A stretch of 62,533 nucleotides of DNA, counting the filler, from Basidiobolus ranarum (taxonomy: Eukaryota): assembly GCA_040143965.1 (NCBI GenBank). It is 39 parts of 39 records of this genome, joined end to end, with 100 filler letters (N's around TTAATTAATTAA, not from the genome) between each part and the next. Parts side by side here need not be neighbours in the genome. Positions count along the whole stretch, not along the records: positions 11,275 to 12,783 come from JASJQH010011845.1; positions 12,884 to 14,392 come from JASJQH010011846.1; 37 more parts are not named here. One strand, 5' to 3'. Under the pieces are notes generated by a model. It was not told the DNA's origin, made no database searches, and saw nothing but the letters and a program-made list of their open reading frames with translations. Shown in pieces: positions 3,235 through 61,033 of the stretch; the stretch's first letter is position 1, and each line of letters begins with the position of its first letter. The position numbers and the translations under genes are program-made.

Positions 3235-3307
3235 GGACTGGTAGCTCAGTGGTTAGAGCACCTTGCTAGAGTGAAGGAGGTCCCAGGTTCAAATCCTGGC
3301 CAGACCA
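3235..3307 (+). tRNA. tRNA-like sequence (anticodon position AGA, short variable loop), probably part of a mobile repeat
   Basis: Cloverleaf GGACTGG/CCAGACC, D arm GCTC/GAGC, T arm CCAGG-TTCAAAT-CCTGG; A and B boxes intact; mismatches at 3:70 and 31:39; no T4 terminator. Confidence 0.8.
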
Positions 3308-6444: not shown

Positions 6445-7191
6445 ATAGTTTGGCCTAATTTGTGTGTGTGATAATCTGATGGTATTTTTAGGAACGCTGC
6501 AAGACAGACTTCTTGGTTAGATAGATCAAGATATGCAGTATTATTGTTTTAGCCATGGGGTAATCTATTCAAGCAATGACATATCTATTTGTGGCTGGAA
6601 ATTTGTTTACTGTATATTGGGGATATGTTGGCTGAATTCTTTATTGATATATTTGCTAAAATCCAAGAGCTTATTCTCATTGTGAATGGTAACAAGAGTC
6701 AGCTATTTGCCAAGTATCAGTGCTATTCAAAGTTTCAGATTTTTAGCAATTTTTCCACCATTAGTTTGCTGGTAAAGCATATTGATGTTGTGGAGTTATG
6801 TCTAATCAGTCAAATATGTGCATATGTATAGACTAAACACAACAAGATTCTTTTACTTTTTGAGTCTTGTTATGGCTGGAATACAAAGCCTAAAATATCT
6901 AAATAAAGACATGCATATTAGTTTGAATTTCTACAGCAGTGAACCCAGTGTTTGCCATTTGAAAATTAGATTTTTGCAAAAATTGCCAGATATCAAATAA
7001 CACCGGCCAAATTTAAGGATCACTATATCAACATGTATGAGTACCATCAAAATGCTATCAAGAGACCACCATCACACCATCAAAATCCCTGGCAGAATGC
7101 AAGCCACCAATATTGTGATGGTTCCCTGTCAGTTTTGCTATTTTTGAAGGTTGATTCAATCTGGATTGAAACAATTTTATTTTTGTTAGTG
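6445..7191 (+). mobile_element. CMC transposase C-terminal region plus terminus B
   Basis: Homologous to 53084-53790 (inverted); ends ATTTTTGTTAGTG, an inverted CCCTAACAAAAAT variant. Confidence 0.7.
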
Positions 7192-7227
7192 TCTAGCAAG
7201 CAGCTCTAACCACTGAGCTACCAGTCC
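7192..7227 (-). pseudogene. 5' half of the tRNA-like repeat, truncated by a CMC terminus
   Basis: Reverse complement reads GGACTGGTAGCTCAGTGGTTAGAGCTGCTTGCTAGA; upstream flank ATTGCATGCAA resembles ATAGCATACAA of the other copies. Confidence 0.8.
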
Positions 7228-7285
7228 TTGCATGCAATGCCTATATTGCTCGGGAACCTTAACCTACTCTGTCAATGCATGGTAC

Positions 7286-7954
7286 CCCTAACAAGAAGAA
7301 AGTCAATTTGATCTGGATTGGATCCATCATTAAAAATTGCAAAACCATCAGAAAACCATCACAATATCAGTGGCTTGCTTGCTGCCATGGATTTTGATGG
7401 TTTGATGGTGGTTTCTTGATGAGATGGTATTCATACATGTTGAAATACTGATCCTCAAAATTGGCATGCATTATTCAATATCCAGCAATTTTTGTAAAAA
7501 TATAATTTTCAAATGGCAAATTACTGGGTTTACTGCTGTAGGAATTCAAATTGATATGCCCTAACAGAAATTTGAGGATTGTTATTGTAGGAAAACCGTC
7601 ACAATTTTAATCCATTTGGGATTGACCATTTAAATATCAGCATAAAATTGTCAAGTTAGATTTGATTTTAATCAATTTTTTCAGTTTCAGGAGTGAAATT
7701 TCAAGATCTCACAAAATAGTTGCAAATGATTGGCTAAAATCTCAGAGAACTATGGATCAACACATGTGCAAAAAATGTAACTCAAATTTTACACAATTAC
7801 CACTTGAACACTAATTTGTCACCTTTGAAATCCCTAGTCTCTTTGATATATTCTCCTGAATATTTTTATAGAGTTCTTCATACCCAAGGTTTAGCTCATA
7901 CCCAACACGAGTTTGTGTCAATATCTCCATCAAAGCCCACCATTGTATTAACGT
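7286..7954. mobile_element. CMC terminus B (7286) with terminus A (7559) and ORF2 3' end nested inside
   Basis: CCCTAACAAG at 7286 and CCCTAACAGAAAT at 7559; 7810-7954 is the reverse complement of 13165-13310. Confidence 0.8.
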
Positions 7955-11274: not shown

Positions 11275-12040
11275 AATTCCCTTGTTGTAATAATTCTATC
11301 CAAATTTTCTACAGAGGGTTGTTCAGTAGTAGGCAAAGAAGCCATTTTGGAAGTTGATGGTCTTGACGGTGTTTTGGTTGAACTTTGCTCAACTATTGAT
11401 TTGGTACATAATTGGGGGATTACAATCTTTTGACTTGCACTATTATTGGGAAAATATGGGCTGGTTGGAGGAACTTTAGAAAAGTGGAGTTGTGAGTAGC
11501 TTTGTGAGATAATTGTTTATTGTCAAGAAATAAAGCATTTATAATTTTTGGTGGAAATACAGAAAACTAAGACTAGGGTTGTGTTCAGAACATCTGTGGG
11601 AGTAAAATGAGCTATTTTTAGGGCAATTTGGACAAGTTTGAAATTTCCAATATGGAATTGCTAATTCTCATATTATTCACATATGTATTTAATATATGTT
11701 CTGATTTTCAGCTAAGTGATATTTGACTAAGTAATGTTAACTAACTTATATATGATATATGAAATACTTAGGTGTATAAAGATAGAGATAATAAATATGA
11801 TAAAGACAATAAACTTCAACAACTATTGCTGGAAAGGAACACATCTGGTAAATTGATTAATGCTTCATCATTACTTGAGTTAGTTTCTGGAATGTTAATG
11901 CCTTCCAAAGTGGATAGTGGATTGCTAGACTGCTCATCAATTAAGTCCTCTGTTCTTGCTGGTTTTTTTCCTCTTGTGCCAGCAGGCTTTGGCTTGGAAG
12001 CCAATTTTGACTTAGATTTTGAGCGCTTTTTGAATGGCAT
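11275..12040 (-). mobile_element. CMC ORF2 5' part (basic N-terminus), interrupted by a solo LTR
   Basis: MPFKKRSKSKSKLASKPKP...; continues past the LTR as in the uninterrupted copies at 51888 and 62059. Confidence 0.8.
11444..11821 (-). repeat. Complete solo LTR, family C (378 bp), 5-bp TSD ACTAT
   Basis: ACTAT at 11439-11443 and 11822-11826; removing the LTR restores the ORF2 sequence. Confidence 0.93.
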
Positions 12041-12251
12041 TGAAATTTTCAGATGGTAAACTTGGTGTAATGAAATTGCTTAGAAACAGCATATAATAAA
12101 CCAAAATTGCCATCCATTACTGGAAATATCTTGTAAATCCCCTGATGACTCATCTGTGAAACCATCTCAGAATCACCTCATGACATTGATGGGCTAAACC
12201 TAAAATACCACCCTTACATGGGAGGTGCTCTTTTTCTACAATACCCTTCTC

Positions 12252-12783
12252 ATGCCGCAACACAAACATTTAAAGAAGCCCTGCTATTGTTGTCACAAAT
12301 TCTTGTGCTATGAGAGCTAAAGGCTTCATAGAAAAAATAATCACAAGCATGGTCACTGTACAAAGTCACCAGCTGCACAACGCCTGGTGTATAACAACAG
12401 TAATAAGTACACTAAATCAACTTTAGTTTTGCCCATTGAGTCCACTGACTGTAGTTGGCCTCAAAGTTTTGGTAACACTGCCAAATGTCAAGATACTGTG
12501 GAGTTACCACAGTTATATGAAAAGAATGGTTTAGGTCAAAATGCAACTTTAGTCAAACTAGTAAGTCCAGACAACTTTGAGGACTTGCTGCTAGATATTG
12601 ACCTTAGTTATTCCAGTACCAATGGTAGTATATCAGAAGTTGAAGAAGAAGATGATGGTTTTGTTATGGACTCTTTGTTATTGGCAAACATTAGTCCACT
12701 CATAACACTTACTGTAAAGGAAGCAGCTGTGATTATTGAGGAGTGGAGAGTTCAATCCAATCTTAGCAACCAGGTGTTTATTG
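12252..12783 (+). mobile_element. CMC transposase N-terminal region
   Basis: MPQHKHLKKPCYCCHKFLC...IIEEWRVQSNLSNQVF; joined to the CPNGC Transposase_21 region in contigs 61034-62533 and 43414-44917. Confidence 0.8.
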
Positions 12784-12883
12784 NNNNNNNNNNNNNNNNN
12801 NNNNNNNNNNNNNNNNNNNNNNNNNNNTTAATTAATTAANNNNNNNNNNNNNNNNNNNNNNNNNNNNNNNNNNNNNNNNNNNN

Positions 12884-13556
12884 TAAAGGCAAGCAAAAAG
12901 CCGCACAAACACCACAAAGCTCCCTCAGTAGTGTCACACTACAAGGATGTGTGAAAATAGTAAAAGTAATTGAGGAGTATTTTCAAAAGTATGAAGGGAA
13001 AGACACAGTGCAAGTATCCAGAAAGTTGCTTCAGAAGAAGAACATTCAACTTGACTTTCAGTCAGGTGTTGACCATGCAGATATTTGGGAAGAACTTCAT
13101 ACAGAGTGTCACAATATTGCAGGGTTTCTGCCAGATAGCTGGAAGAATGTTGATTCAGCAATGTTAATACAATGGTGGGCTTTGATGGAGATATTGATAC
13201 AAACTTGTGTTGGATATGAACTAAACCTTGGATATGAAGAACTCTGTAAAAATATTCAGCAGAATATATCAAAGGAACAAGGAATTCCAAAGGTGACAAA
13301 TTAGAATTCAAGTGGTAAATGTGTAAAATTTGAGTTACATTTTTTGCACATGCATTAATCCATAGTTTGCAAAAACTGTAGCCAATCATGTGCAACTATT
13401 TTGCATGATCTTGAAATTTCACTCCTGAAACTGAAGAAATTGATTAAATTCAAATCTAACTTGATGATTTCATGACATTAAGTAAATGGTCAATCACAAA
13501 TGAATTAAAATTGTGTTGGTTTTCCTACAATAACAATCCTCAAATTTCTGTTAAGG
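12884..13556 (+). mobile_element. CMC ORF2 C-terminus (stop 13304) and terminus A
   Basis: Open frame ending KEQGIPKVTN; about 250 bp later CCTCAAATTTCTGTTAAGG. Confidence 0.78.
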
Positions 13557-14183
13557 TACCATTTTGTTTGCCATGGGGCAATCTGTTTGAGCAATGACAT
13601 ATCTACTTGAGGTAGGACATTTGTTGACTACAAATTGCAAACATTTTGGCAGAATTCTTTATTGAAATTTGCCAAAATGCAAGAGCTTATTATCATTGTT
13701 ACATTAATATGAGTCAGCTATTTGCCCTGTGTGAGTTCTATTTCTGAAAATACTCCTCAACTACTTTTACTATTTTCATATGTCTCAATAATGTGACACT
13801 ACTCAGGGTGCTTTGTGGTGTTTGTGTGGTATTTGCTTGTCTTTAATGTCAGGTATAATTTAAAAACTTTAAAAAGTACTACTTGAGGTTGGAGAGCCAT
13901 GAGTTTTATTTGCTGGTGTTTTGGCTTGTTGAGAGATGCCAGGTGTTGGATAAACTTCCAAATTGAAAACTCTCTCAACCAGTGTACCTGGTTCCATGGT
14001 GAAACTAAGCTTTTTTGCCAGTATATCTGACTCTGGAAATGCACATCTTGGTAATGTTGTGAAGATTTCAGTAAGTGGGAGAGTAGAGCCTAAACTCACT
14101 GGCTCCTTTGCTTTTCCCTTTGGTTTACCAACTTCCTGCTCCTTGAGTACTTCTTTAGCTGCTTTTCTTTCTTTTCCAAGTCT
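13557..14183. mobile_element. Further CMC fragments: transposase C-terminus (+) fused to ORF2 middle (-)
   Basis: 13560-13740 matches 6545-6730; 13745-14183 matches 59005-59333 and 12884-12995 inverted. Confidence 0.7.
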
Positions 14184-14989
14184 ATGATTGTCATGATTCT
14201 TATCTTGGCATACTGTTCCACTACAAATAGAACTTCTCTATTATTAGATTATGACATCATATCTGCTGTGCCATCTCTTCTTGGCAATCTTGTGTTAGTT
14301 CATCCAGATTACCATATATGGAAGTCATGTTCTTTGGAACATTCCACAAAACCTAACCAATCATGTCATCCCACACATAGTGTATTTATGCCNNNNNNNN
14401 NNNNNNNNNNNNNNNNNNNNNNNNNNNNNNNNNNNNTTAATTAATTAANNNNNNNNNNNNNNNNNNNNNNNNNNNNNNNNNNNNNNNNNNNNATCGCAAG
14501 AGTCTTTAGCAAAAGAGATAGTGTAAGAATAATAGCAGCATCTAGTAGACACTCACATAGCCATGCAGATGTATCTTTATATATTAACAGTACATTCTTT
14601 GCCTTTCAGGCAATCCGGTGGCAAATGAAAACACTGTGCATAGGATCCAGATGCCCCAGGTGTCAGCAATATTTCTACTTCAATCTTGCTCAAAAGTGCT
14701 TTGGCTTCAAGGATACTGTTGCCCTTTTTCAGTTCCATAGTCAAAAAGCACTAAAGTTAAGGCTGGCAGCCTTGATTTTGGCCATCAGACCTGAGTTGTT
14801 ATGAATATTACATTGAAGTGTAAGTAATATAAATCTATTAATTTCCCTTTCCATATCAAGCTGTTTTCATGCAATTGACAAAATTTTGGTACATTTATCC
14901 CCACAAGATTAATAGTTCTTTCTCTATATTAAATTTGTAAGCACTATATGATATTCCCAATAAAGATTCTGAAAGCCTAACCATAAGTT

Positions 14990-20927: not shown

Positions 20928-22435
20928 CTTGAAGTATATGCAGTGATCAGCTTTGCTACAATGGAAAAGATGTTTCATGAAGATCTGATTGATTTTGGTA
21001 TTCCATGCACAAGGAGCCTGTTTCAGACCATATAGACTTCTCTGTAGTTTGCATACTTGATTTTCTTTTCCTTTTGCAATATATCCCTCTGGTTGATCCA
21101 TGTATATCATCAATTTCTCCATTAAAAAATGCTATATTGACATCCATTTGTTCAATCAGCATTCCTTGGTGGGTAGCAATGGCTAGGATTACTCTGATTG
21201 AGATAAATTTAGCATTGGGAGAAAATGTTTCATCATAGTCAATGCCATATTTCTGAGCATAGCCTTTTACTACTAATCTTGCTTTGTACCAGTTGATAGA
21301 TCCATCTGAGTTAAGTTTCAGTTTCAGCAACCATCTATTACCGATAGTTTTTCTTCCAGTAGGTAAGTCCACAAGGATCCATGTGTTATTCTTGATTAGG
21401 GAGTAAATTTCATCATCAGTGGCTTTTCTCCATTCTGTCACTTCATCAGATTTCAGAGCTTGTGTCAAATTTTCTGGTTCACAAAATGCTATATGTGTAG
21501 CTCTATTCCACCCTTTTTCTGAATTGAAGCTGTTAATTTTATGCTTTGATTTGAGACATCCAAAGTCCTTGGTAGAATGGTCAGATGTTTCACTTACAGG
21601 ATATTTCTGATTTCCACTCAGTAGGATGTCTGAGACATGATTGCCTGAATTTTGTGATTGATTGAATACTTGTTGTGATTGATTGCATACTTTCAATAAT
21701 TGATGGCATCCAATATCAGCCAAATTGAGAGTAAGATATTTCTTAGGTATGTGATTGGTCAGAAAATTATTGCCTTGTTTCTGAGCCCAATTTCCTGCTT
21801 CCTGATTGGCTGGAAAAATATTCTTTTTCTGATCACCATATTTTTTATTGGCAGAGATAATATGCAGATTTCCAGAAGCCAATTCCAAATTGCTAGTATC
21901 CTCAGAGTAATTATCAGGTTTTCTGGTATAAATTGGTGCATTTCCAATGCTGCCTGATGTTTCACTACTTATATAGGTGCTTGATTCCAGAATATTATAT
22001 AATAGTTTGTTCTCCTTGGTTTCAGTACTTGTAGTGAAGTTTGAGACAGGATTATTGCTTGTCAGTTTTCTGCTAGGAATATTCACCACAGGGATTGGTA
22101 ATGATTTGAGCTTTGTCATATATTCATTGGTGGCTGATGTTTTAGATCTTGTCTCAGATGTGATATTTTCTAAATCTGGATAATGATGATAGATAATTTC
22201 AGATTCCAAATCTGGTCTAATTTGAGTATCTATTTCCAATGTATCATTTTCCAAGTTGGTTTCTGTACCTGTTAGCTCAAGATTGGTTTCAGAACTTGTT
22301 AACTCAGAATTTGAGTTATTGAGAAATTGATTTTCAGCCAAAATCAAATTCCCTTGATTAGAAGATTTGAGATTTTCTTCAATGAATATAGTATCTCTGG
22401 AGTTGATGATTTGATTTGTGCCAGCAATTAGGAGA
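20928..22435 (-). mobile_element. Copia integrase tail, linker and RVT_2 reverse transcriptase
   Basis: SRDTIFIEE, NNTWILVDLP, YKARLVVKGYAQKYGIDYDETFSP, QMDVNIAF, LYGLKQAP. Confidence 0.95.
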
Positions 22436-24143: not shown

Positions 24144-25540
24144 ATGGAGATGTTGACACAAAGTCATGCTGGGTATGAGCTAAACCTTGGGAATAAAGAA
24201 CTCTATAAAATTATTCAGGAAAATATATCAAAGAGACTAGGGATTTCAAAGGTGACAAATTAGCATTCAAGTGGTAATTGCGTAAATTTTGAGTTATGTT
24301 TTTTGAACATGTGTTGATCCATAGTACTCTGAGACTGTAGCCAATCATGCGCAACTATTCTGTGAGATCTTGAAGTTTCACTCTTGAAACTGAAAAAATT
24401 GAGTAAAATCAAATCTAACTTGACAATTTTATGACAGTAAGTAAACGGTCAACCCCAAATGGATTAAAATTGTGACGGTTTTCCTACAATAGCAATCCTC
24501 AAATTTCTGTTAGGGGAGTCTTATAGGACCCAGCCATGGTAATTGACAGATCAAATCTTACTTGACAATTTTATAATGGTAAGTAAAAGGTCAATCCCAA
24601 ATGAATTAAAATTGTGACAGTTTCCCTACAATAGGAATTCTCCAATTTCTGTTAGGGAAAACACCTGTTGCAATTGGAGGGCTGGGAGTTTTATTTGCTG
24701 GTAATTAGCTTGTTGATAGTTGGCAGATCTTGGATAAACCTCAGACTTTGCACTCATCAAATTGACACACTTGGTTGCATAGTAAAGCAGGCCTTTTTGC
24801 CAGTACCACTGCTCATATACCTGACTGTGGAAATAAAAGTCTATATAATGGTGTCAGAGATTTGGTACATTGAACAGCCCAAAATCACAGGCTCCTTTGC
24901 TTTTCCCTTGGTTTTACTAACTTCCTGTGGACTGAGTACATCTTTGGCTGCTGTTCTTTCTTTTCCAAGTAAAAAATTGGGCACATTTTTGAGATGTTTG
25001 ATAAATAGGCCTATACTTGCCTAATTGCCATTTGTGTGCAAAACCCAAAATAAGTCAAGAACCTTCTGAGTAATGCCTGGTCTTTGATTTTTCTACAATT
25101 GGCTCAAATTGAGATGATTTTGGCCTAAATTTGGCATCATTTGCAAAAAGTTAAACCAATCATCATCTAAGCAAGTGAGAGTAGCTCTAATATTCAGAGT
25201 CTGTTGGTTTGCTGGTTTTCCTATTCAATTTCTACTTTCATGTGCCTACCAATTTTGGGTTGTTGTTTATGCTTCAAGGTCCATCACATAAGCTGCTCTG
25301 CTAGAGTGTCTTGATGACATTCATCAGTGTAGTGTTGGACTATTTACAATTCCATCTGAGAATGTATGGAGGGAGCAGCATGTTGCGGTAGCTCAAGTAC
25401 AGCATTCTGAAGATCTTGTATCACAGTTGAGTGACTCTCTAACTAATCATTAGTTGCTTCCAAACACTGCATCAAATGCAATATTGCTGCATTCTTGCTT
25501 ATCATAGCTTGTATGGCAGCTTTTAGTTTTTACTCATGAT
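24144..25540. mobile_element. Nested CMC fragments: two terminus-A copies (end 24515 and 24657) and ORF2 (-)
   Basis: Two TTTCTGTTAGGG ends; 24660-25540 matches 52270-52929 and 59005-59333 inverted. Confidence 0.78.
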
Positions 25541-25651
25541 TGTTGAAGTTTATTGTCTTTATCATATTTATTATCTCTATCTTTATACACCTAATTATTT
25601 CATATATCACATATAAGTTAGTTAACATTACTTAGTCAAATATCACTTAGC
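25541..25651 (+). repeat. LTR family C, partial
   Basis: TGTTGAAGTTTATTGTC start. Confidence 0.85.
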
Positions 25652-25751: not shown

Positions 25752-27237
25752 AGTAGCTAGTTTAGCTCCATTAGATCAATCCTGGCACTCTCAGCCATCC
25801 ATAACCTTGATCTACATTAAATGGATGTAAAAACAGCCTTTCTGAATGGAAATCCAGAAGAAGAGATCAATATGGAGAAACCAGATGGATTTGTTGACCC
25901 AAAACATCCTGACATGGTCTGTAAAAAGCAAAAATTGCTCTATGTACTCAGGCAAGCACCAAGGTCATGGCACAATATGACAGATAACTATTTGGAATCT
26001 CTGGAATTCCAAAAATGCACAGCAGATAAACCCAATCAGAAGCTTATGCTGAATCAGTCTAGATACATCCCAGACATCCTAAAATGCTTAAACATGGAGA
26101 ATTGGAAGCCTGTATCAACACCAATGGAACCCAATGTGAAATAAATTAAAATTTCATCTGATCTGGCCCAAAATGACTCAAATCAAAGCTGGGAGTTTCC
26201 TTATCAATTCATGGTTTGTAGTTTAATGTATACAATGGTTGGAACATGTCCAGACATTGCTGTGGCAGTGGGAACTGTCAGCAAATACCTCAAAAACTCA
26301 GGATCTGAGCACAAAACTGCAGTAAAACAAATATTCAGGTATTTGAGAGAAACTGTAGATCTAGTTCTGGAATACTCTGCCACTCCTGATGCACAAAATA
26401 TTGAAGGCTACCATGATGCAGACTGGGGAAGAAACCTTGATGATAGAAGATTGACAACTGGATACACTTTTCTCTATGGTGATGGAACCATAACTTGGAA
26501 TAGTAAGAAGCAACCAACAAAAACACTTTTGACTACAGAAGCAGAGTATATGGCTGTCTCTGCTACTACACAAGAAGCTATGTGGTTGAGGAAGTTCTTT
26601 ACAGATTTAGGATATAGGCAAAATCCTGCTATTACTGTATTTGAAGATAATCAAAGTTGTATTTCATCAGCTAAAAACCTTACATTTCATGCTAAAACAA
26701 AACATATATATATTAGTCATCATTTATTTAGAGAAGCAATAGAGAATGATATAATTGAACTTGTCTATCACCCTATGGAAGAAATGATAGCTGATATCTT
26801 AACACAACCTTTAGCTAAAGCACAATTTGAATTATTAAATATAACTTAGGTTTAAGAGAAATATAAAATAATTAGTTGAGTGGGAATGTTGAAATTAGGT
26901 AAAAGCAACTCATTATTTAGTAGTTAGTTTATTCATATTCTGATTGTTTAGCACTCAATTCTGTTATTCAAAAATGTGTGTTTATTGCTCTAATTGATAG
27001 AAATATCAATGAGATCACTTTTACCAATTTTTACTATTTTCTCAAACCTTTGCCAAATCACCTTAAATTTTCACCCATGCTTAACAGGCATGTTTGTTAT
27101 GATCTAAGCATGTCCAATAGTCCTATTTCATAGTAAACTATAAATAAGACATATTCAATTCAATAAAACTTAAGTGTCTAATTCACAAATCCAAATCTTG
27201 TCCAAAACACTTCCAAATCCCCTAAACACTTTTATCA
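25752..27237 (+). mobile_element. Copia RT/RNase H, PPT and 3' LTR family B (26887-27237)
   Basis: MDVKTAFLNG, QAPRSW, DADWG, FEDNQSCI, MIADILTQPL; GAGTGGGAA|TGTTGAAATTAGG. Confidence 0.95.
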
Positions 27238-41177: not shown

Positions 41178-41709
41178 CTCTAACAAAAATAAAATCAATT
41201 TGATATAGATTGGATCCACCCTCTGAAATAGAAACATCATCAGAGAATCATCACCATATTGGTGGCTTGCATTCTGCTAAGAATTTTGATGGTGTGATGG
41301 TGGTTTCCTGATGGTATTTTGACAGTATTCATACATGTAAAATATTGATCCTCCAATTTGGCATGCATTAGTCAATATCCGGCAGTTTTTGCAAAAATCT
41401 AATTTTTGAATGGCAAATTACTGGGTTTACTGCTGTACCAATTCAAATTGATATGCATGCCTTGATTTAGATATTTTAGGTTTTGTATTCAAGCCATAAT
41501 CCCTAACACAAATTTGAGGATTGTTACTGTAGAAATCCATCATAATTTTAATCCATTTGGGATTGACCATTTACTTACCATCATAAAATCATCAAGTTAG
41601 ATTTGATTTTAATCAATTCTTTCAGTTTCAGTAGTGAAATTTCAACATCTCACAAAATAGTGGCAAATGATTAAATAAAATCCCAGAGAACTATGAATCA
41701 ACACATGTG
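41178..41709. mobile_element. CMC terminus B (41178) with nested terminus A (41501)
   Basis: CTCTAACAAAAAT and CCCTAACACAAAT. Confidence 0.8.
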
Positions 41710-46620: not shown

Positions 46621-48012
46621 ACTTGAGTTAGTTTCTGGCATATTAATGCCTTTCAAAGTGGATTGTGGATTGCTAGACTGCTCATCAATTAAGTCCTCTG
46701 TTCTTGCTGGTTTTTTTCCTTTTGTGCCAGCAGGCTTTGGCTTGGAAGCCAATTTTGATTTTGATTTTGAATGCTTTTTGAATGGCATTGAAATTTTCAG
46801 ATGGTAAGCTTGGTGTAATGAAATTGCTTAGAAACAGTTTATAATAAACCAAAATTGCCATCCATTACTGGAAATATTTTGTAAATCCCCTGATGACTCA
46901 TTTATGACACCATCTCAGAATCAGCTGATCATGTTGATGAGCTATACCTAAAATGCCACCCTTACATAGGAGGTGTTCTTTTTTCTACAATATTCTTCAC
47001 ATGCCACAACACAAATGTTTAAAGAAGCCCTGCTAATATTGTCACAAATTCTTGTGCTATGAAAGCTGGAGGCTTCTTAGAAAAAATAATCACAAGCATG
47101 ATCACTGTACTTAGCCACCAGCTGCACAAAGCCTGGTGTATAACAACAGTAATAAGTGTACTAAATCAACTTTAGTTTTGCCTATAGAGTCCATTGACTC
47201 TACTTTGCCTCAAAGTTTTGGTAACACTGTCAAAAGTCAAGATACCATGGAGTTACCATAGTTATATGACCAGAACAATGTGGGTAGAAATGCAACTTTG
47301 GTTGAACCAGTAAGTCCAGATAACTTTGAGGACTTGATGCTAGATGTTGACCTTAGTTGTTCCAGTACAAATGGTAGTATATCAAAAGTTGAAGAAGAAG
47401 ACAATGGTTTTGCTATGGACTCTTTGTTATTGGCAAACATTAGTCCACTCATAACATTGTATATACTCAAGTGGAATCTTGAAAAGATTTCTCCCTGATA
47501 AGTATTGGCAACATTGGTAGTTGTTTGTTGATATTGTTAATGTATTCTTATGGCATCAACTTACATTGGCAGATCTCAGGCAGATACAGCAACTGTGTGA
47601 AGAATTTGTAAATCAATATGAAAAACTTCATTACAGATTTAAAGAAGATAGACTAAATCTATGCTGGTATTTAATATGTTCCCTGCTGCATCTTTCACAA
47701 TGCTTAGAGATTATAGGCCCTTGCTATACATTCTGGGAGTTCCCAATGGAGCACATCTATGGTTAAATGATGCTCCATATGAAATTGTCAGTATTACCAT
47801 ATGCTAATCTGATTAACAATATATCAGCAAAATCATTGATGGATGTAATGCAATGGGTTAAGGAGACTCCAGAGTATATTAACCTTCCAACAAAGGGCTC
47901 TTTTCAATGTGCTCATGGTTTTTTGCATTGTTTAAGCATAATAAAAACAACAAAGCCCAATCCATGGACACAGAGAAAGTACCTCCATAATTTGGACTAA
48001 TTTGTTTGTGTG
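46621..48012. mobile_element. CMC divergent pair: ORF2 (-, ATG 46788) and internally deleted transposase (+, ATG 47001) with DUF4218-like region
   Basis: SLLHLSQCLEIIGPCYTFWEFPMEH; LTR-D inserted from about 48013. Confidence 0.85.
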
Positions 48013-48599: not shown

Positions 48600-49130
48600 G
48601 GACTGTGATTCAAGGTGAAAATTTTGAATTTTGTTAAATATCACATGAATGCACTTAATAAACTTCTAAGTTTTGGTAACAAACAGTTTGTAGGCCTTTG
48701 ATCCATCCCAGTAACCAAGAAATATGCCTTTTTGGCTTTTAGGCTCCAATTTAGAGCATTTTTGAGCTAGATTTTGGCAAAATGCTGAGCATCCAACAAT
48801 CCTGTGATGATCCACACTTGGTTTTGATCCATATAGGGCTTCAAATGGAGTAGACTTTTGTAGCAATCTTGTTGGGAACCAGTTTTTCATATAGACCCCA
48901 GTGGAGACAGATTCATACCAGTATTAGAAATCTAACTTTTGATCATATAACATTGTTCCAGCCATCTCCACTATGGTCCTATTATCACATTCTGCAACTC
49001 ATTTTGCTGAGGAGGATAATGTACAGGAGTTTGCTGCTTAATTTGATGTATAGAACAAAATTAACAAAGTCTTTAGAGCAATATTTTCCACTATTATCAC
49101 TCCCCAGTACCCTCATTTTTTGTACTGATT
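48600..49130 (-). mobile_element. Copia integrase C-terminal region
   Basis: SDNSGKY, TPFEALYGSKP, KLEPKSQKGIFLGY. Confidence 0.88.
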
Positions 49131-49174
49131 CTTTCACCAATACATACAATGATATTAGCTTTAATAAAATATTC

Positions 49175-49726
49175 ACCCATCTGAACCCCTTTAGATAACC
49201 ATTCAAATACTGCAATCAAAGGCTCCAAGAAGCTATCTATAAGCACTGGTGATTTAGGTCCAGATATGATGGATAGTATCAAAATATTATGACTCTTATA
49301 CCATTCAGAAGGAGGAAGATTTAAGTTGATTAAAATTATTGGCCAGCAAGCCTTTCCAATGGTATATTTGTTTAGTAAGAAACCATCCAGAGCCAATGCA
49401 AATGCATGATCATATGTGTTCTCAAAGAAACCTTGACTTTTCAGATTCTGGTAGTGATATCCATCAAGTATATCAGTAATACCATCAGCTTTATGGTGAG
49501 TACTTTGGTATTGGATCAATGATCTATATTTGGGTGATTTCATCAAAACTCTGAGATGGGTAATTAATGGTATGTAAGCTGAATATGAACAATATTTACC
49601 TGATTCAGCGATTGCCAATTGTGTGGAAACAGTACATGACTTCAGGTTTTTCAGATCACCGGTGAAAGCCAAACAACCATTTGGACATGAAGGCAGTTTA
49701 ATTACTGAAGGATTATAAGTCATACA
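49175..49726 (-). mobile_element. CMC Transposase_21 (TnpD-like) core
   Basis: CPNGCLAF, YIPL, DILDG, LALDGF, WPIILINLNLPP, GPKSP, SFLEPL; also at 46340-46520. Confidence 0.92.
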
Positions 49727-51244: not shown

Positions 51245-51317
51245 TGGTCTGGCCAGGATTTGAACCTGGGGCCTCCTTCACTCTAGCAAGGTGCTCTAAC
51301 CACTGAGCTACCAGTCC
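51245..51317 (-). tRNA. tRNA-like sequence, second full copy
   Basis: One substitution (variable loop) relative to 3235-3307; both flanks shared. Confidence 0.8.
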
Positions 51318-51428: not shown

Positions 51429-52929
51429 ACAGTATCTTGACTTATGGAAGTGTTACAAAACTTTGATGCAAAGTACAGTCAGTGGACTCAGTGGGCAAAA
51501 CTAAAGTTGATTTTGAGGACTTATTATTGTTGATATTCACCAGGCTTTGTGCAGCTGGTGTCTTTATACAGTGTCTGTGCTTGTTATTATTTTTTCTATA
51601 AAGCCTCCAGCTTTCATAGTACAGGAATTTGTGACAATACTAGTAGTGTTTCTTTAAATGTTTGTGTTGCAGCATGCAAAGGATATTGTGGAAAAATGAA
51701 CACCTATTACACAAGGGTGGTATCTTAGGGATAGCCTATCAATATCATCAGCTGATTCTGAGACAGTATCACAGATGAGTTGTCTGGGGATTCACAAGAT
51801 ATTTCCAGTAATGAATGGCAATGTTGGTTTATTATAAGCTGTTTCTAAGCAATTTCATTACACCAAGTTTGCCATCTGAAAATTTCAAAACCATTCAAAA
51901 AGCATTCAAAACCTAAATCAAAATCAGCTTCAAAGCCAAAGCCTGCAGGCACAAAAGGAAAAAAACCAGCAAGCACAGAGGACTTGATTGATGAGCAGTC
52001 TAGCAATACACTATCCACTTTGGAAGGTATTAATATGCTGGAAACTAACTCAAGTAATGATGAAGCATTAATCAATTTACCAGATGTGTTCCTTTCCAGA
52101 GATAGTGCAAGTGAAGAGATTGTAATCCCCCAATTACATAGTAAATCAATAGTTGAGCAATGTTCAACCAAGACACCATAAAGACCATCAACTTCCAGAG
52201 TGGCTACTTTGCCCAATATTGAACAACCTTCCACAGAAGATTTTGATAGAATTATTACAACAAGGGAATTTTAGACAGAACACCATGATGATTTGTATGC
52301 AATCATAAGTAAAAAATACAAAGTTGCTATACAGGTCATGACAAGTAATAATGCTGCAATATTGCAATTAATGCAGTGCTTGGAGACAGCTAGTCAACAG
52401 TTAGAGAGTCACTCAACAATGATACAAGACCTTCAGAATGCTGTACTTGAGCTACAGCAACATGCTGCTCCCTCCATCCATTCTCATACAGAATTTCATG
52501 CAATCCCACACCTTACATAATGAACATCACCATGAAAATCTAGCAGAGCAGAGTAGGGGTAAGACTATTAAGCCTACACAATCACCTGAAATTGCTTGGG
52601 CACATGAAAGTAGAAATCTCATAGGAAAACCAGCAAACCAAGAGACTCTGCATGTCAGAGCTGCTGTCACTTGCTCTGATGATGAGTAGTTTAACATTTT
52701 AGAAATTGTGTAGAATCTTACCCAAAATCACCTGGATTTGAGTCAATTGTGGAAAAATCCAAAAACCAAGCATTACTCTGAAGGTTCTTGACTTATTTCA
52801 TGTGGCTTATCTTGGGTTTTTGCAAGCAAATGCCAATTGGCCTAGTATAGGCCTATTCACAAAACATCTCAAAAATATACGCAATTATTGACTTGGAAAA
52901 GAAAGAAAAGCAGCTAGAGAAGTAATTAA
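51429..52929. mobile_element. CMC divergent pair: transposase start (-, ATG 51675) and ORF2 (+, from about 51888)
   Basis: PFKKHSKPKSK...LQLMQCLETASQQLESHSTMIQDLQNAVLELQQ. Confidence 0.82.
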
Positions 52930-53083
52930 NNNNNNNNNNNNNNNNNNNNNNNNNNNNNNNNNNNNNNNNNNNNTTAATTAATTAANNNNNNNNNNNNNNN
53001 NNNNNNNNNNNNNNNNNNNNNNNNNNNNNGTTGAGTGACTCTCTAACTGTTGACTAGTTGCTTCCAAATGCTGCATTAATACT

Positions 53084-53790
53084 CCCTAATAAAAATACAA
53101 TTGATTTGAACCGGATTGGATCCACTCTACAAAAAAGCAAAACTGTCAGAGAACCATCAAAATATAGATGGCTTCATTCTGTCAGGGATTTTGATGGTGT
53201 TATGGCAGTTTCTTGTCAGTATTTTGATAGTATTCAAACATGTTAAGATATTGATCATCATTTTTGGCATGCATTATTCAATATTGGCAAATTTTTGCAA
53301 AAATCTAATTTTCAAATGGCAAATCACTGGGTTTACTGCTGTAGGTATTTGAATGAATATGCATGCCTTCATTTAGATATTTTAGGCTTTGTATTCCAGC
53401 CATAATGAGAATCAAAAAAACATGAATCTTGTTGTGTTTAGCCTCCACATATGCATGTACTTGACAGATTAGATATAACTCCACAACATCAATATGCTTT
53501 ACCAGCAAACCAACATTGGAAACATTCCTAAACATCTGAAATTTTGAATAGCACTGACACTTGGCAAATAGCTGACTTTTGTTACCATTCACAATGAGAA
53601 TAAGCTCTTGGATTTTGGCAAATTTCAATAAAGAATTCAGCCAATATATCCTCAACTTGTAGTCAACATATGTCCTGCCACAAGTAGATGTGTCATCGCT
53701 TGAATAAAATATCCCATAGCTAAAACAATAATACTGCATATCTTGATCTATCTCACCAAGAAGTCTGTGTTAAAGCTTTCCTAAAATACC
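53084..53790 (-). mobile_element. CMC terminus B and transposase C-terminus
   Basis: CCCTAATAAAAAT; ORF 53305-53739 homologous to 6533-6930. Confidence 0.75.
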
Positions 53791-57177: not shown

Positions 57178-57732
57178 CTAAGAATGATATACAAACGTAG
57201 CGACAAATATTCCATAGAATTGCTGAGCAATTATCATGCCAGTAAAAGCTATCAGGCCACCAAGCAAGCCGCTTTGGAGATTAAAGCTGAAGGACGTTGT
57301 TTGAGGAGCATGTAGGCCAAAAGAGTTGGGGATATCGGAGTCATCCTTTGTATAATATTTGGCAAAGAAGTCATTCTGTAGCCGCAGAACTTTATTAAAT
57401 GCCAAAACAACTCGAAGCTCGTATTCTCTCTCTAGTTTTAGTGTGCTTACTGCCCAAATCAAAGTGGATTCAACAAAATCAAGAAGAGCAGAAATATGGA
57501 TGTATTCTACACTAATCTTGGACTTCTTTCCGGGGATATCAGTGTGAATCTTTGCAACCCAATCCAGGTATTTGCTCATATGCTCATCATAAGGGTTTAT
57601 CAAGAGACGACTAATAGAGCACGTCAACACATCCTTTCGATACTTTATCTGCGAGCTATTCACATCAAGTTCACAAATGTCCTCAACAATCTTCCCGGCA
57701 TAATCTTCGTGGCGAGTAGCCATGGTTTGCCA
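57178..57732 (-). CDS. Fungal protoglobin (globin-sensor) domain protein, 5' truncated, hydrophobic C-terminal tail
   Basis: QIKYRKD, YLDWVAKIHT, VEYIHISALLDFVE, AFNKVLRLQNDFFAKYY. Confidence 0.8.
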   Translation of the reverse strand, partial: WQTMATRHEDYAGKIVEDICELDVNSSQIKYRKDVLTCSISRLLINPYDEHMSKYLDWVAKIHTDIPGKKSKISVEYIHISALLDFVESTLIWAVSTLKLEREYELRVVLAFNKVLRLQNDFFAKYYTKDDSDIPNSFGLHAPQTTSFSFNLQSGLLGGLIAFTGMIIAQQFYGIFVATFVYHS

Positions 57733-57843: not shown

Positions 57844-58160
57844 TGTTGGATAATTAATCTTTATTCAACATCTTAGTTAACTTTAGTTATGATACATATA
57901 TCAGAAACAGAAAGCAACGTATCTATAGCCCCTATATTCTAAAGAGGAATATCTCTATATCTATATAACAAGTATGTCTTATTATCCCCGCTTATCTATT
58001 ATATCTTATTACACAAACTCCTGAATATCTCAGACAATTGATTTACTCTTCTACTATATAAGTCACCATATACTCTTAAGAATAAACTAACTAAAACACA
58101 CTATCATCAGTGGCTTCTAATACTCAAAGTCTAACCCCATTATGTCAAGATCCTCCAACA
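57844..58160 (+). repeat. Complete LTR family D (317 bp) preceded by a PPT
   Basis: AAGGGAAGG|TGTTGGA...TCCAACA. Confidence 0.88.
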
Positions 58161-58820
58161 AATTATGTATTTGGTAGACTTCTGGATGAAGATTCATGCA
58201 AATCAAGACTCAACCAAAAGAATGAAGAAAATGCTTTTATAAGCTATGGGAAACCTTCCTATTCAAGTCAAAAGTGCCTTAAGAAGAAAAGTAACACATT
58301 CTGTGATTACTGTAAAAGAACTGGCCATATGAGCAAAGATTGCTTTAAAAGAATTGCAAAAGAAAAATGTACTGAATCTGGAAATGTGGTTACAACAGAA
58401 GATCACTTGTTCATATCTGCTCTATCTATGACTATCAACAAGGATTCTCAGACATGGTGTATTGGTTCTGGAGCTTCCCAACATTTCACCAATGAAAAAC
58501 ATTGGTTTGTGGAATATGAAGAAATCCCAATTAGAAAGGTTTTCATGGGAGATGACCGCACATTGGACTCTATTGGAATGGGAACAATTCAAGTCAATTT
58601 AACTGGAGCTTCTGAAGAGAAAGTATATACTTTGAAGAATGTACTGCATGTTCCAGATATTGCCAATATCTTAATATCCATATGCAAGGCCACCTCAGAA
58701 TGGCCAAAATTCAATTTTGATAAGTCAGGATGCACCATCACTGATCAAAATGGGAATTATTTAGCTCCGGGAGAAAAGTATCAAAACTTATACAAACTTA
58801 CATATAATCCAAGAGGTTTA
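58161..58820 (+). mobile_element. Copia gag knuckle and protease
   Basis: CDYCKRTGHMSKDC; WCIGSGASQH; LKNVLHVP. Confidence 0.92.
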
Positions 58821-58822
58821 AA

Positions 58823-59333
58823 GTGTGTGAAATCTGTCCCAAAATCCCCTTGATTTTAGCAAATTGTAAAAAAACCAGAAACCAAGCATTACTTTGAATG
58901 TTCTTGACTTATTTCATGTGGGTTATCTGGGGTTTTGCAAGCAAATGGCAATTGGGCTAGTATAGACCTATTCATGAAACATCTCATAAATGTATGCAAT
59001 TATTGACTTGGAAATGAAAGAAAAGCAGCTAAAGAAGTACTCAAGCAGCAGGAAGTTGCTAAACCAAATCAAAAAGCAAAGGAGCTAGTAAATTTAAGTG
59101 CTACTATCCCACTTACCAAATTCTTCACACCATTACACAGATATGTATTTGCCAAGTTAGATATCCTGGCAAAAAACTTAATTTTACCATTTAACCTGGT
59201 ACACCAGTTGGAAGAGTGCTAAATTTGGAAGTTTCTCCAACACCTGGCACCTCTCAACAAGCCAAAACACCAGCAAATAGAACTCAAGGCTCTCCTACCT
59301 CAACTGATACTTTTCAAAGTTCTGAAACTAGCC
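58823..59333 (+). mobile_element. CMC ORF2 middle part
   Basis: Overlaps 52720-52929 and 13860-14183 (inverted). Confidence 0.72.
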
Positions 59334-59433: not shown

Positions 59434-60681
59434 GCTTCTTGAGCTGATTCCAGGGTAGACAACATCTATCAGAAATTCAAGGCATTTGACAAGGTCTTCA
59501 GTGTTGATTGGTTTGAGAAGAACATCTTGATAGTTGTGTAGTTGGTTAAAGATTATTCCAAACATAGTATGGATTTTGGTCTTCATCTTGGTAAAGAACT
59601 GTCCCTAACCCAACATTAGATGCATCAGTAGCAACAAAGAAAGGCTTGGAAAAGTCAGGATAAGATAGAGTAGGAGCTAGAAGAAGCATTGTGCATTGTG
59701 AATCAAAGGCTTGATCATGTACTTTGGTCCAAACTGAGAGTAGGTTTCCATTATGCCATAAGGAATCAAGTGGTGCACTTAGAGTAGAGAAAAGTGGCAT
59801 ATATTCCCTGAAATAGTTGAAGACTACAAGGTAGTGTTGAAGCTGTTTAGTGGTAGTGGGCTTAGGCCAATCCTTGATGTTGACTAACTTGAAAGGATCC
59901 AATTGGTGGCCTGTAGGAGTAACAATAACACCAAGTAGATTGATTTTGAGGCAAGCAAAGCTTCATTTTTCAGCTTTCAGGATAAGTCCAGCAGAAGTAA
60001 GACTGTTTATAGTATCAGTAACATGGGTTGAATGATCAGCCCTATCAGTTGAGAAAATGATAAAATCATCAACATACATTAAGGCATAGCTAGCATCTTT
60101 GAGAATGATGGTCATAACTCTTTAAAACTTGCTGATCAGTCTCATGAGTCCAAAGGGTGCTCCTTGGAACATCTATTGCATGTTTCTCCATGTGAAAGCG
60201 GTCTTGTTTTGGTGGTCTGAATGAATCTGAAATTGGTGATAAGCATCTTTTAAATCCATTTTAGAAAATACTTGTGCTCCTGAGAGTGAGGAAAAGATGT
60301 CATTGAACCTAGGGATAGGAAATTTATCATCCTGTTGTTGTTTGTTTAGAGTTCTTGGATCTCAACATGCTCTTTTTAGCATAAGATTTCCTTCCAAATC
60401 CTTCTTTGGTGCTAAATTCAAAGTGCTGTCAAAGGTAGTGTTGACAGGTTTTTGAGTGATAATGCTATTATCAGCCCTTTTCTGTACCACTTCATCAACT
60501 AAAGGTTGTAGCATATGTGCACTTGGATATTGTCTTCTCCAAGTGGTTTCTCTAAGAGGTGTTTCCAAGGTAACAAGAGACTCTGGTTTTGTGCAGAAGC
60601 TGTTTTTTGGGATCTTCTGGTTTCTCTCAATTACAGGTTGAATGGCAACTTTGACAGAGTTGGCATATGCTTGGAAGGAAG
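59434..60681 (-). mobile_element. Ty3/gypsy RT and RNase H (decayed)
   Basis: FSKMDLKDAYHQ, KTAFTW, APFGL, YVDD, ATDASNVGLG; followed by CMC terminus A (60682) and LTR-C (60718-60933). Confidence 0.95.
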
Positions 60682-61033
60682 CCCTGACAGAAATTTGAGG
60701 ATTGTTATTGTAGGAAATGTTGAAGTTTATTGTCTTTGCCATATTTGTTATCTCTATCTTTATACACCTAACTATTTCATATATCACATATAAGTTAGTT
60801 AACATTACTTAGTCAAATATCGCTTAGCTGAAAATCGGAACATATATTATATATATATGTGAATAATGTGAGAATTAGCAATTCCATATTGGAAATTTCA
60901 AACTCATCCAAATTGCCCCAAAGATAGCTCATTNNNNNNNNNNNNNNNNNNNNNNNNNNNNNNNNNNNNNNNNNNNNTTAATTAATTAANNNNNNNNNNN
61001 NNNNNNNNNNNNNNNNNNNNNNNNNNNNNNNNN

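Follow-up and report, generated by a model that had tools for sequence, protein, structure and literature searches.

In PIF/Harbinger transposons, the transposase and a Myb/SANT-like protein are both required. The CMC/EnSpm (CACTA) superfamily is marked by a Transposase_21 transposase, termini in CACTA or at least CA..TG, duplications of 2–5 bp at the target (3 bp for EnSpm), and short subterminal repeats in both directions. The two proteins of maize En/Spm, TnpA and TnpD, are described in the available part of PMC1636069 as the products of one transcription unit on one strand, generated by alternative splicing. The available sections of a recent preprint (bioRxiv 10.64898/2026.08.24.746577) present the accessory proteins of Spm/EnSpm elements as diverse and report TnpA-like proteins only from flowering plants; in Arabidopsis ATENSPM6, the accessory protein possesses a TnpA-type double helix-turn-helix and arises from its own start site, not by splicing. 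In the part of Kojima (2025, PMC12730594) accessible to us, the EnSpm families of rust fungi are given ends of the CAC..GTG type and 3-bp duplications, and the gene orientation of multi-gene fungal DNA transposons is stated to vary, opposite orientation being known. For the genus Basidiobolus, "huge expansions of CMC-EnSpm" were reported in two genomes (Muszewska et al. 2017, PMC5751038). The elements were sorted there by transposase domain (Pfam), and the available text of that article mentions neither the ends of the elements, nor a second gene, nor the gene orientation.

Here, we analyzed a stretch of 62,533 nucleotides from Basidiobolus ranarum (hereafter, the window), which consists of 39 unlinked contigs, each of ~1.5 kb, with N linkers between them. 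Our preferred reading, to which we assign a probability of roughly 0.6, is that the window contains decayed, CpG-depleted copies of one abundant cut-and-paste CMC/EnSpm (Transposase_21) family, in which a second gene, ORF2, encodes a nuclear accessory factor whose expression is coupled with that of the transposase. Pieces of the family were found in 18 of the 39 contigs, and all the copies in the window are dead. The observed/expected ratio of CpG was 0.00–0.14 in 26 contigs and at least 0.29 in the remaining 13. The family probably belongs to the same population as the published Basidiobolus CMC-EnSpm expansion. The initial annotation had given positions 11275–13556 for a reconstructable CMC/CACTA transposon. 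Since the contigs are unlinked and joined by N, this interval instead covers parts of two unrelated contigs (11275–12783 and 12884–14392) separated by an artificial N..TTAATTAATTAA..N linker. Both element ends never occur within one contig in any copy, and both genes together with both ends were found at no locus in the window, because every contig is only ~1.5 kb long. Thus, the absence of a single locus linking ORF2, the transposase, and both terminal inverted repeats, which the initial annotation had named as grounds for giving up its model, is literally true in the window; the layout itself was pieced together by tiling from copies in decay, a single deletion derivative, and proteins from databases.

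The divergent ORF2/transposase pair was shown to travel as one unit. Four contigs, starting at 11275, 46621, 51429, and 61034, have ~1 kb in common at 85–91% identity, and in all four the ORF2 and transposase starts face away from each other across 211–213 bp, as had been noticed before. In the first (contig 8), ORF2 starts at 12040 and the transposase ATG is located at 12252, leaving a divergent intergenic spacer of 211 bp (12041–12251), which is presumed to be a bidirectional promoter. The equivalent spacers are 46789–47000 in contig 30 (ORF2 start 46788, transposase ATG 47001; 212 bp), 51676–51887 in contig 33 (ORF2 start 51888, mutated to AAA, and transposase ATG 51675; 212 bp), and 61846–62058 in contig 39 (ORF2 start 62059, transposase ATG 61845; 213 bp). 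A fifth contig (54631) also possesses the spacer and the transposase start. Conservation of the spacer, sought as a sign of a constrained promoter, was 0.87, showing no excess over the flanks (0.90 and 0.86). The majority consensus of the common region contained no stops in 177 transposase codons and one stop in 158 ORF2 codons, and single copies contained 0–5 stops in the transposase segment. ENA lists one contig of 5,233 bp for the database protein P0001 and likewise for P0010; we infer that this size is compatible with the presence of both genes on one contig.

The contigs share ~110-bp ends and are short graph fragments, and nesting and rearrangement among the copies are extensive: contig 9 is composed of three joined pieces, and the transposase parts of contig 28 are out of order. 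These features would also suit a pair that is merely two different repeats lying side by side, or a chimera of short-read assembly. Such an origin is very hard to reconcile with the identical junction in five contigs, whose mutual identity of 81–91% indicates that the junction is older than their divergence, and we consider it highly improbable.

The transposase gene was traced through several copies. Its 5′ part in contig 8 (12252–12783, plus strand; 177 codons with one stop) is in frame with the database transposase P0001 and has a Cys/His-rich start of the form C-x2-C...H-x4-H. In contig 39 (61034–62533, minus strand), residues ~1–270 of the transposase are encoded on the minus strand; beyond the spacer, ORF2 begins at 62059 on the plus strand. 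Contig 30 (46621–48012, plus strand) is an internal-deletion copy, in which the ORF2 start (minus strand, to 46788) and the spacer are followed by transposase residues ~1–155; the sequence then jumps to the equivalent of residues 512–696 of P0001, and the 3′ end of the transposase continues into a different repeat. The catalytic part lies in contig 31 (49133–49723, minus strand) and is 89% identical to that of P0001, an intact relative. The assignment to Transposase_21 (PF02992) made in the initial annotation was borne out by a Pfam match at 49100–49726 on the minus strand (E 5.6e-11; bit score 42.5, cut-off 28.6) and by that of P0001 (E 1.9e-16), whereas DUF4218, proposed along with it, gave no Pfam match. 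Inspection of P0001 by eye revealed CRFC, IHSLLH, and WEFPMER in this order, that is, C(2)C and H(3–4)H motifs ahead of the last catalytic E; the SLLH..WEFPME part is kept, with decay, in contig 30. Residues 345–511 of the transposase are missing from the window. The only relative with a name, from Rhizoctonia, is annotated as "Transposase family tnp2" (33% identity), and a metagenome scan with the transposase profile gave 291 pattern matches, none of which was confirmed, and no loci.

ORF2 comprises ~590 codons, apparently in one exon. In contig 8, its 5′ part (11823–12040, minus strand; ATG at 12040–12038) begins with the Lys/Arg-rich sequence MPFKKRSKSKSK, and 12 of the first 30 residues are Lys or Arg. 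This copy is split by a solo-LTR-like insertion of 370 bp (11453–11822) with a flanking ACTAT duplication, to the left of which ORF2 continues with codons ~74–130 (11275–11452, minus strand). The 370-bp repeat is also present in further contigs. Contig 33 (51429–52929, plus strand) contains the transposase start (minus strand, from 51675 leftward), the spacer, and ~1040 bp of ORF2 on the plus strand, which includes a heptad stretch and the middle motif FHVAY..GLF.KH and has one frameshift and several stops. Contig 16 (24144–25542) has two tips of the ORF2 side, at 24515 and 24657 (minus strand), followed by an ORF2 copy that is more diverged (869 bp; 71–79% identity) and connects the middle part to the N-terminal part. 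The C-terminal 139 codons are found in contig 9 (12885–13304, plus strand) in an intact frame and encode a conserved Trp-rich helical domain; the 3′ untranslated stretch and the ORF2-side terminus follow (13305–13556, plus strand), with the tip CCTTAACAGAAAT at 13556–13544 on the minus strand. The distance from this tip to the ORF2 stop is 252 bp within a single contig. Further along contig 9, a piece of the transposase-side arm (13564–13742) precedes a rearranged second copy of the ORF2 middle part (13740–14392, minus strand). The tiling is based on the overlaps among contigs 9, 37, 16, and 33. In the database proteins P0004 and P0010, a single frame continues from the ORF2 middle part to its C-terminus; P0006 connects the N-terminal with the C-terminal part. 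The basic start, the heptad Leu/Ile/Val stretch, and the Trp-rich C-terminus, all of which had been pointed out before, are present in the sequence.

Both arms terminate in the same 13-bp inverted motif: CCCTAACAGAAAT at the end of the ORF2 arm (n = 8) and CCCTAACAAAAAT-like tips at the end of the transposase-side arm (n = 6). The motif CCCTAACARAAAT, with at most one mismatch, occurs 10 times compared with 0.25 expected, and none of 100 shuffles reached 10. The flanking sequence diverges exactly at the tips, consistent with the short terminal inverted repeats that had been proposed. Tips shared by the two arms also argue against a chimeric pair. Both arms have CCCTAAC as the consensus tip, and CACTAAC was found in 1 of 14 tips; the termini are thus neither CACTA nor CA..TG. 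The transposase-side arm possesses five TGATGGT-like sites (at most one mismatch) 41–150 bp from the tip in both orientations, a number reached in none of 500 shuffles, and no such sites were found on the ORF2-side arm.

The transposase-side arm is represented in contig 34 (53084–54530, plus strand; tip CCCTAATAAAAAT at 53084), where its insertion site is the heptad region of a further ORF2 copy (53030–53083). It is tied to the transposase only by contig 35 (54631–55186, plus strand), a deletion derivative in which the spacer and the first ~41 transposase codons are fused directly to the terminal ~250 bp of that arm, tip included. The retention of the spacer and the far terminus in one derivative is likewise not expected of an assembly chimera. 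In contig 5 (6479–7954), the transposase-side arm extends to a tip at 7191 (minus strand), and a second such tip is found at 7287 (plus strand), followed by an ORF2-side tip at 7559 and the ORF2 C-terminus. At two of the ORF2-side tips, an inverted transposase-side arm adjoins directly, and this suggested that the tips may be part of a long inverted repeat of ~300 bp. This was rejected because the two junctions are unequal (278 and 323 bp) and the six other ORF2-side tips have no inverted terminal arm: five are flanked by unrelated sequences, and that of contig 9 adjoins an interior arm fragment. A preference for TA as the target was also rejected, the two bases before the eight ORF2-side tips being TC, TG, TA, TC, TT, AT, AT, and AG.

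As judged from its sequence, ORF2 is a real, conserved protein-coding gene. A phmmer search of 1.84 billion representatives with ORF2 found six matches; P0009 and P0012 came from profile searches. The closest named relatives are three partial "hypothetical proteins" of Basidiobolus ranarum. The C-terminal domain is found at 26–39% identity in five diverged relatives (P0005, P0007, P0008, P0009, and P0012), all of which are on short contigs, and P0009 also keeps the middle motif (65% over 34 residues). The ratio dN/dS, a check proposed in the initial annotation, ranged from 0.35 to 1.10 over six ORF2 pairs and from 0.39 to 0.71 over eight transposase pairs. No Pfam family was found for any ORF2 segment, covering the whole length, or for its relatives (E up to 0.1–1), in agreement with the earlier description of a second, divergent gene without a recognized family. 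The lack of any recognizable transposon-related domain would suit a passenger, i.e. a captured host gene or gene fragment that serves no function in the element, on the model of Pack-type CACTA; host-sequence capture by CACTA elements is documented in the available part of PMC2528002. The conservation of the C-terminal domain in the five diverged relatives, one of which has the same block order, is opposed to this explanation, as are the dN/dS of 0.35 between ORF2 subfamilies and the fixed spacing from the transposase start in all four copies. In addition, none of the only six relatives is a longer named cellular protein. We regard a passenger as distinctly improbable.

Structural analyses gave little indication of the fold. 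A profile search of PDB sequences with ORF2 gave a best match at E 0.046; this match, polyubiquitin, was taken as chance. Structure prediction had been proposed as a check, and two AlphaFold2 runs on the C-terminal domain yielded no confident fold (mean pLDDT 51.0 and 50.0 with 8- and 10-row alignments). The Foldseek comparison of this model with the PDB, for which the model is too poor to carry meaning, gave no match at E ≤0.001 (best E 2.5). In the Atlas, P0005 (model pLDDT 0.44) had no feature matches, and all its structural rows were below the bar (TM 0.36–0.51 by query and 0.11–0.42 by row). A metagenome scan with the ORF2 domain profile gave 341 pattern matches, none confirmed, and no loci. 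The predicted complex of the transposase and the ORF2 C-terminal part scored 0.00, which carries no weight either way.

The full element would be ~5–6 kb long. From the left, it would consist of the terminus CCCTAACAGAAAT, ~250 bp, ORF2 (~590 codons) reading toward that end, the spacer of 211–213 bp, the transposase gene (at least ~757 codons) in the opposite direction, and an arm, ≥283 bp long, that contains the TGATGGT-like repeats and ends in the inverted terminus CCCTAACAAAAAT. The spacer may act as a bidirectional promoter that couples the expression of both genes. The Lys-rich, nuclear-import-like start, the heptad stretch for dimerization, and the two conserved helical blocks led us to read ORF2 as a putative nuclear accessory factor, which would aid the transposase by binding either the subterminal DNA of the element or the transposase itself. 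Its role may be analogous, though not homologous, to that of TnpA in En/Spm or the Myb-like protein in PIF/Harbinger.

By analogy with VANC of VANDAL elements or with TnpA at the methylated Spm promoter, ORF2 might instead be a regulator or anti-silencing factor, which binds cognate copies and counters silencing by cytosine methylation. The extreme CpG depletion in 26 of the 39 contigs makes heavy methylation of the copies by the host probable, and with it selection for a counter-measure. Anti-methylation genes have been repeatedly acquired by fungal DNA transposons, according to the accessible text of PMC12730594. In fungi, the Spm transposase usually carries the DNA-binding domain as a fusion (bioRxiv 10.64898/2026.08.24.746577, available sections); the present transposase has its own Cys/His-rich start, and a separate binder may thus be dispensable for cutting. 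Against this, ORF2 shows no match to TET/JBP or to another Pfam family anywhere along its length, and the import signal, heptads, and helical domain are equally suited to a cofactor, so that we consider a regulatory or anti-silencing function unlikely.

The element resembles maize En/Spm and other plant CACTA elements in its Transposase_21 DDE transposase, its short terminal inverted repeats, and a second element-encoded protein that lacks a catalytic domain, and it may resemble them also in subterminal motifs, which here are repeated on one of the two arms. It differs in that its two genes are on opposite strands with starts 211–213 bp apart and in that its termini are CCCTAAC instead of CACTA. 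No Pfam family resembles the ORF2 sequence, which is therefore not TnpA-like, and ORF2 shares neither transcription unit nor strand with the transposase. ATENSPM6 belongs to the same superfamily and likewise produces its accessory protein from a separate start; it is, in contrast, of plant lineage, its accessory protein is of the TnpA type, and the available sections of the preprint describe no divergent arrangement for it. Fungal EnSpm/Plavaka elements and the TET/JBP EnSpm families of rust fungi share with the present element a fungal host, a Transposase_21-type transposase in which C(2)C and H(3–4)H motifs precede the last catalytic E (as noted by eye in P0001), and extra non-transposase genes. 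Unlike the latter families, as they are described in the accessible part of Kojima (2025, PMC12730594), the element ends in CCC..GGG and its ORF2 is not a TET/JBP dioxygenase, no such family being found in the ORF2 segments or relatives. PIF/Harbinger serves as a working analogy, with two separate genes, the second of which encodes a non-catalytic nuclear protein. Its transposase belongs to another superfamily, and no Myb/SANT match was obtained in ORF2 with Pfam (E up to 1).

The CMC-EnSpm expansion in Basidiobolus is already published, with only transposase domains counted so far, and the divergent two-gene architecture was not found in the literature as far as the cited sources were available. 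Lineage-specific extra genes are common in the CMC/EnSpm superfamily, and the element, although genuine, is a rather ordinary version of an established type of transposon, which opens no long-standing question. If the divergent layout is true, it would provide a concrete model (ends, arms, and two genes) for annotating the repeat-rich genomes of Basidiobolus, and would add another accessory protein without known relatives to the cases in which separate partners evolve repeatedly in cut-and-paste transposons. More tentatively, and with less than even confidence, ORF2 may found an undescribed family of accessory proteins whose helical fold is an orphan and which occurs only in the CMC-type elements of early-diverging fungi resembling Basidiobolus. 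Such proteins would be co-expressed with the transposase, with one bidirectional promoter of 211 bp serving both genes, and would be required for transposition or to evade silencing by methylation. The "second protein" solution known from En/Spm and PIF/Harbinger would then have been invented independently in this family.

The start of ORF2 (the second gene of the transposon family) and the ATG of the transposase are divergently oriented in all four contigs that have about 1 kb in common at 85–91% identity (contigs 8 and 30 in plus orientation, contigs 33 and 39 in minus orientation). The two starts lie at 12040 and 12252 in contig 8 (spacer of 211 bp), at 46788 and 47001 in contig 30 (212 bp), at 51888, where the ATG is mutated to AAA, and 51675 in contig 33 (212 bp), and at 62059 and 61845 in contig 39 (213 bp). 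These coordinates bear out the initial annotation, which had described divergent starts 211–213 bp apart in four contigs. Contig 35 also carries the spacer and the transposase start. A 370-bp insertion with an ACTAT duplication breaks the ORF2 of contig 8 (11453–11822); several other contigs contain the inserted repeat. The same LTR-like repeat follows the first ~50 bp of the ORF2-side arm (the DNA adjoining the terminus on that gene's side) at 1352–1403 and 60682–60733; the two contigs with this junction are only 84% identical, indicating that the composite junction is itself repeated.

The pattern CCCTAACARAAAT occurs 10 times with at most one mismatch, against 0.25 expected, and none of 100 shuffles reached 10. 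Allowing two substitutions gave 13 matches, comprising eight ORF2-side tips, three transposase-side tips, and two unrelated sites; three further, degenerate transposase-side tips were recognized from alignments. The outer flanks are unrelated from copy to copy and the inner sequences align, which identifies the tips as true element ends. Their consensus is CCCTAAC, in contrast to the CACTA of the elements of that name, and CACTAAC was found in one of 14 tips. The initial observation is real and far beyond chance. The terminal six bases of all tips (e.g. 7559, 24515, and 41501), CCCTAA, are identical to a single unit of the common telomere repeat; the likeness is probably a coincidence, because only one unit is present. 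The transposase-side arm contains five TGATGGT-like sites in both orientations, 41–150 bp from the tip, a count reached in none of 500 shuffles, and the same site count found none on the ORF2-side arm.

Rather than being read from one locus, the layout of the element is pieced together from dead copies by tiling. The 62,533 bases consist of 39 separate contigs of 1,500–1,512 bp each, joined by linkers (N..TTAATTAATTAA..N), and the range 11275–13556, as given initially, runs from contig 8 (11275–12783) across a linker into contig 9 (12884–14392), two contigs that are not genomic neighbours. Both ends of one copy were found together in none of the 39 contigs, and no single locus within the window links ORF2, transposase, and both TIRs. 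In contig 9, 252 bp separate the ORF2 stop (13302–13304) from the ORF2-side tip (13556); contigs 5, 16, and 32 have part of this arrangement, and in contig 26 the same arm extends no further than 173 bp from the tip. The C-terminal part of ORF2 is joined to the middle part by a 105-bp overlap inside contig 9 and, independently of that contig, by two related database proteins, P0004 and P0010, which read straight from one into the other. The middle part is joined to the N-terminal part via contigs 37, 16, and 33, and in another relative, P0006, a deletion brings N- and C-terminal parts into a single frame. Contig 33 has one apparent change of frame, which comparison with P0006 resolves to a 1-bp insertion, and thus no intron is needed. 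By this tiling the ORF2 ATG lies ~2,012 bp from the tip, corresponding to ~586 codons. On the other side, the sole direct tie of arm to gene is contig 35, where the transposase breaks off at codon ~41 and the terminal ~250 bp of the transposase-side arm, with its tip, follow immediately. For both P0001, a database relative of the transposase, and P0010, a single ENA contig of 5,233 bp is reported as the source; the predicted two-gene span of ~4.5 kb would fit that length, were the contig the same.

Pieces of the family are present in 18 of the 39 contigs. The contig 34 tip interrupts another copy of ORF2 in its heptad region, ORF2-side tips lie within transposase-side arms in contigs 5 and 26, and 7 bp lie between that of contig 9 and a fragment of such an arm, showing that the family often lands in itself. 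ORF2-side tips at 7559 and 41501 come directly after 278 or 323 bp of an inverted transposase-side arm (7287–7558 and 41178–41500), and contigs 5 and 35 each have a facing pair of transposase-side tips, with 96 and ~525 bp between them. These arrangements suggest that the family often inserts into itself or that the transposase-side arm has given rise to a short derivative family. A tRNA-like fragment (7192–7286) lies between two transposase-side tips.

The transposase frame opens with a Cys/His-rich start (MPQHK.LKKPCYYC.KF...) in all five copies and continues in frame into the region matching P0001, an intact protein of 698 residues that is 89% identical to contig 31. Pfam identified Transposase_21, as initially annotated, in the window piece 49100–49726 (E 5.6e-11) and in P0001 (E 1.9e-16); the DUF4218 also claimed was absent from both at E up to 1. 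By eye, P0001 has CRFC and HSLLH ahead of WEFPMER, which are the motifs listed for this clade by Kojima (PMC12730594). In a tblastn search of the window, residues 1–344 of P0001 matched contigs 39, 31, 28, 29, 8, and 30 and residues 512–696 matched contigs 30 and 28, with no counterpart of residues 345–511. Contig 30 is an internal-deletion copy, jumping from residue ~95 to 512.

The C-terminal 139 codons of ORF2 (12885–13304) form an open frame. A phmmer search against 1.84 billion representatives found only six proteins, and profile searches gave one match (P0009) among 8,000 scored candidates of greater length and 10 among 2,440 near-length proteins. Three relatives at 69–80% identity, P0003, P0004, and P0013, bear the name 'hypothetical protein K7432_..., partial [Basidiobolus ranarum]', and Basidiobolus or a close relative is probably the source of the window. 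Five others (P0005, P0007, P0008, P0009, and P0012) share only 26–39% identity with the C-terminal part and keep the motifs Y-F, C..L.K, D.WE..N..WH, GYPP..W, and L.EWW.L.E. In P0009 the middle motif is retained as well (FHVAY.GFL.AN..W..IGLF.KH.KN.R.Y, with 65% identity to contig 33 over 34 residues), and an unconserved Lys/Ser-rich linker sets the conserved blocks apart. The dN/dS between the two ORF2 subfamilies (contigs 16 and 33) is 0.35; on small counts of 46–122 codons, six ORF2 pairs range from 0.35 to 1.10 and eight transposase pairs from 0.39 to 0.71. The majority consensus of the common region has no stop in 177 transposase codons and one in 158 ORF2 codons, and single copies have 0–5 stops in the transposase segment. 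Taken together, the open frame, the diverged relatives, dN/dS, and the consensus show that ORF2 is a conserved coding gene travelling with the transposase.

No segment along the whole length of ORF2 matched a Pfam family, a PDB sequence search gave nothing better than E 0.046, and the Atlas yielded nothing usable. Two structure predictions have five helices with pLDDT of only 51 and 50, and the Foldseek result therefore carries no meaning. The Lys-rich start and coiled-coil-like segment noted initially hold up: 12 of the first 30 residues are Lys or Arg, and a heptad stretch has L/I/V at every seventh residue (LQLMQCLETASQQLESHSTMIQDLQNAVLELQQ). From these features and two conserved helical blocks, we infer that ORF2 is a nuclear accessory factor, probably dimeric, which might bind DNA, bind the transposase, or counter silencing. 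A 2026 preprint (bioRxiv 10.64898/2026.08.24.746577) reports that fungal Spm elements usually have their DNA-binding domain fused to the transposase, and that TnpA-like proteins are restricted to flowering plants. Since the transposase here has its own Cys/His-rich N-terminus, in addition to that pattern, a regulatory role may be slightly favoured over a pure end-binding role.

The CpG observed/expected ratio is sharply bimodal, at most 0.14 in 26 of the 39 contigs and 0.29–0.98 in the other 13. The low-CpG contigs are mostly repeat mosaics with mutual matches, and the bimodality fits a CpG decay driven by methylation and directed at repeats. Copies differ mainly by transitions (G>A 54, A>G 49, C>T 46, and T>C 40 of 315 differences). 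Decayed retroelement pieces (20956–22434, minus; 25821–26849, plus; 58095–58853, plus; 59546–59962, minus; 1–525, minus), both Ty1/copia-like (RVT_2, Pol beta-barrel) and Ty3/gypsy-like (RT_RNaseH_2, aspartyl protease), occupy much of the remaining window, nested with the transposon copies. Apparently ordinary genes are found among the higher-CpG contigs: a metallo-beta-lactamase-fold protein (contig 24, 36996–37700), an alkyl sulfatase (contig 25, 38601–40105; Alkyl_sulf_dimr, E 2.6e-58; GC 0.48, CpG observed/expected 0.98), and an open frame with a Protoglobin domain (57178–57732, minus; E 4.5e-16) in a contig of normal CpG content. Contigs 24 and 25 are outliers in composition within the window; they could carry ordinary genes, or represent contamination or bacterial-like acquisitions. 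Contigs 3 and 32 have a 112-bp overlap at 99%, and the same tRNA-Ser (AGA) lies at an end of each (3235–3307, plus, and 51245–51317, minus); overlaps of ~110 bp are common to many contig ends, as expected of assembly-graph fragments.

The only literature found with both Basidiobolus and EnSpm was the survey of Muszewska et al. (PMC5751038), which reports very large expansions of CMC-EnSpm elements in two Basidiobolus genomes and, in the portion available, classes elements by transposase domain and makes no mention of ends, second gene, or orientation. No description of this layout was found in the papers covered on divergent or opposite orientation in CACTA/EnSpm elements; the supplements of these papers may contain families of this kind. 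According to Kojima 2025 (PMC12730594), fungal DNA transposons of several superfamilies bear extra genes, sometimes opposite to the transposase. The element is best classed as a family of the CMC/EnSpm type whose ends, CCCTAAC, are atypical and whose second gene is divergent and lineage-specific.
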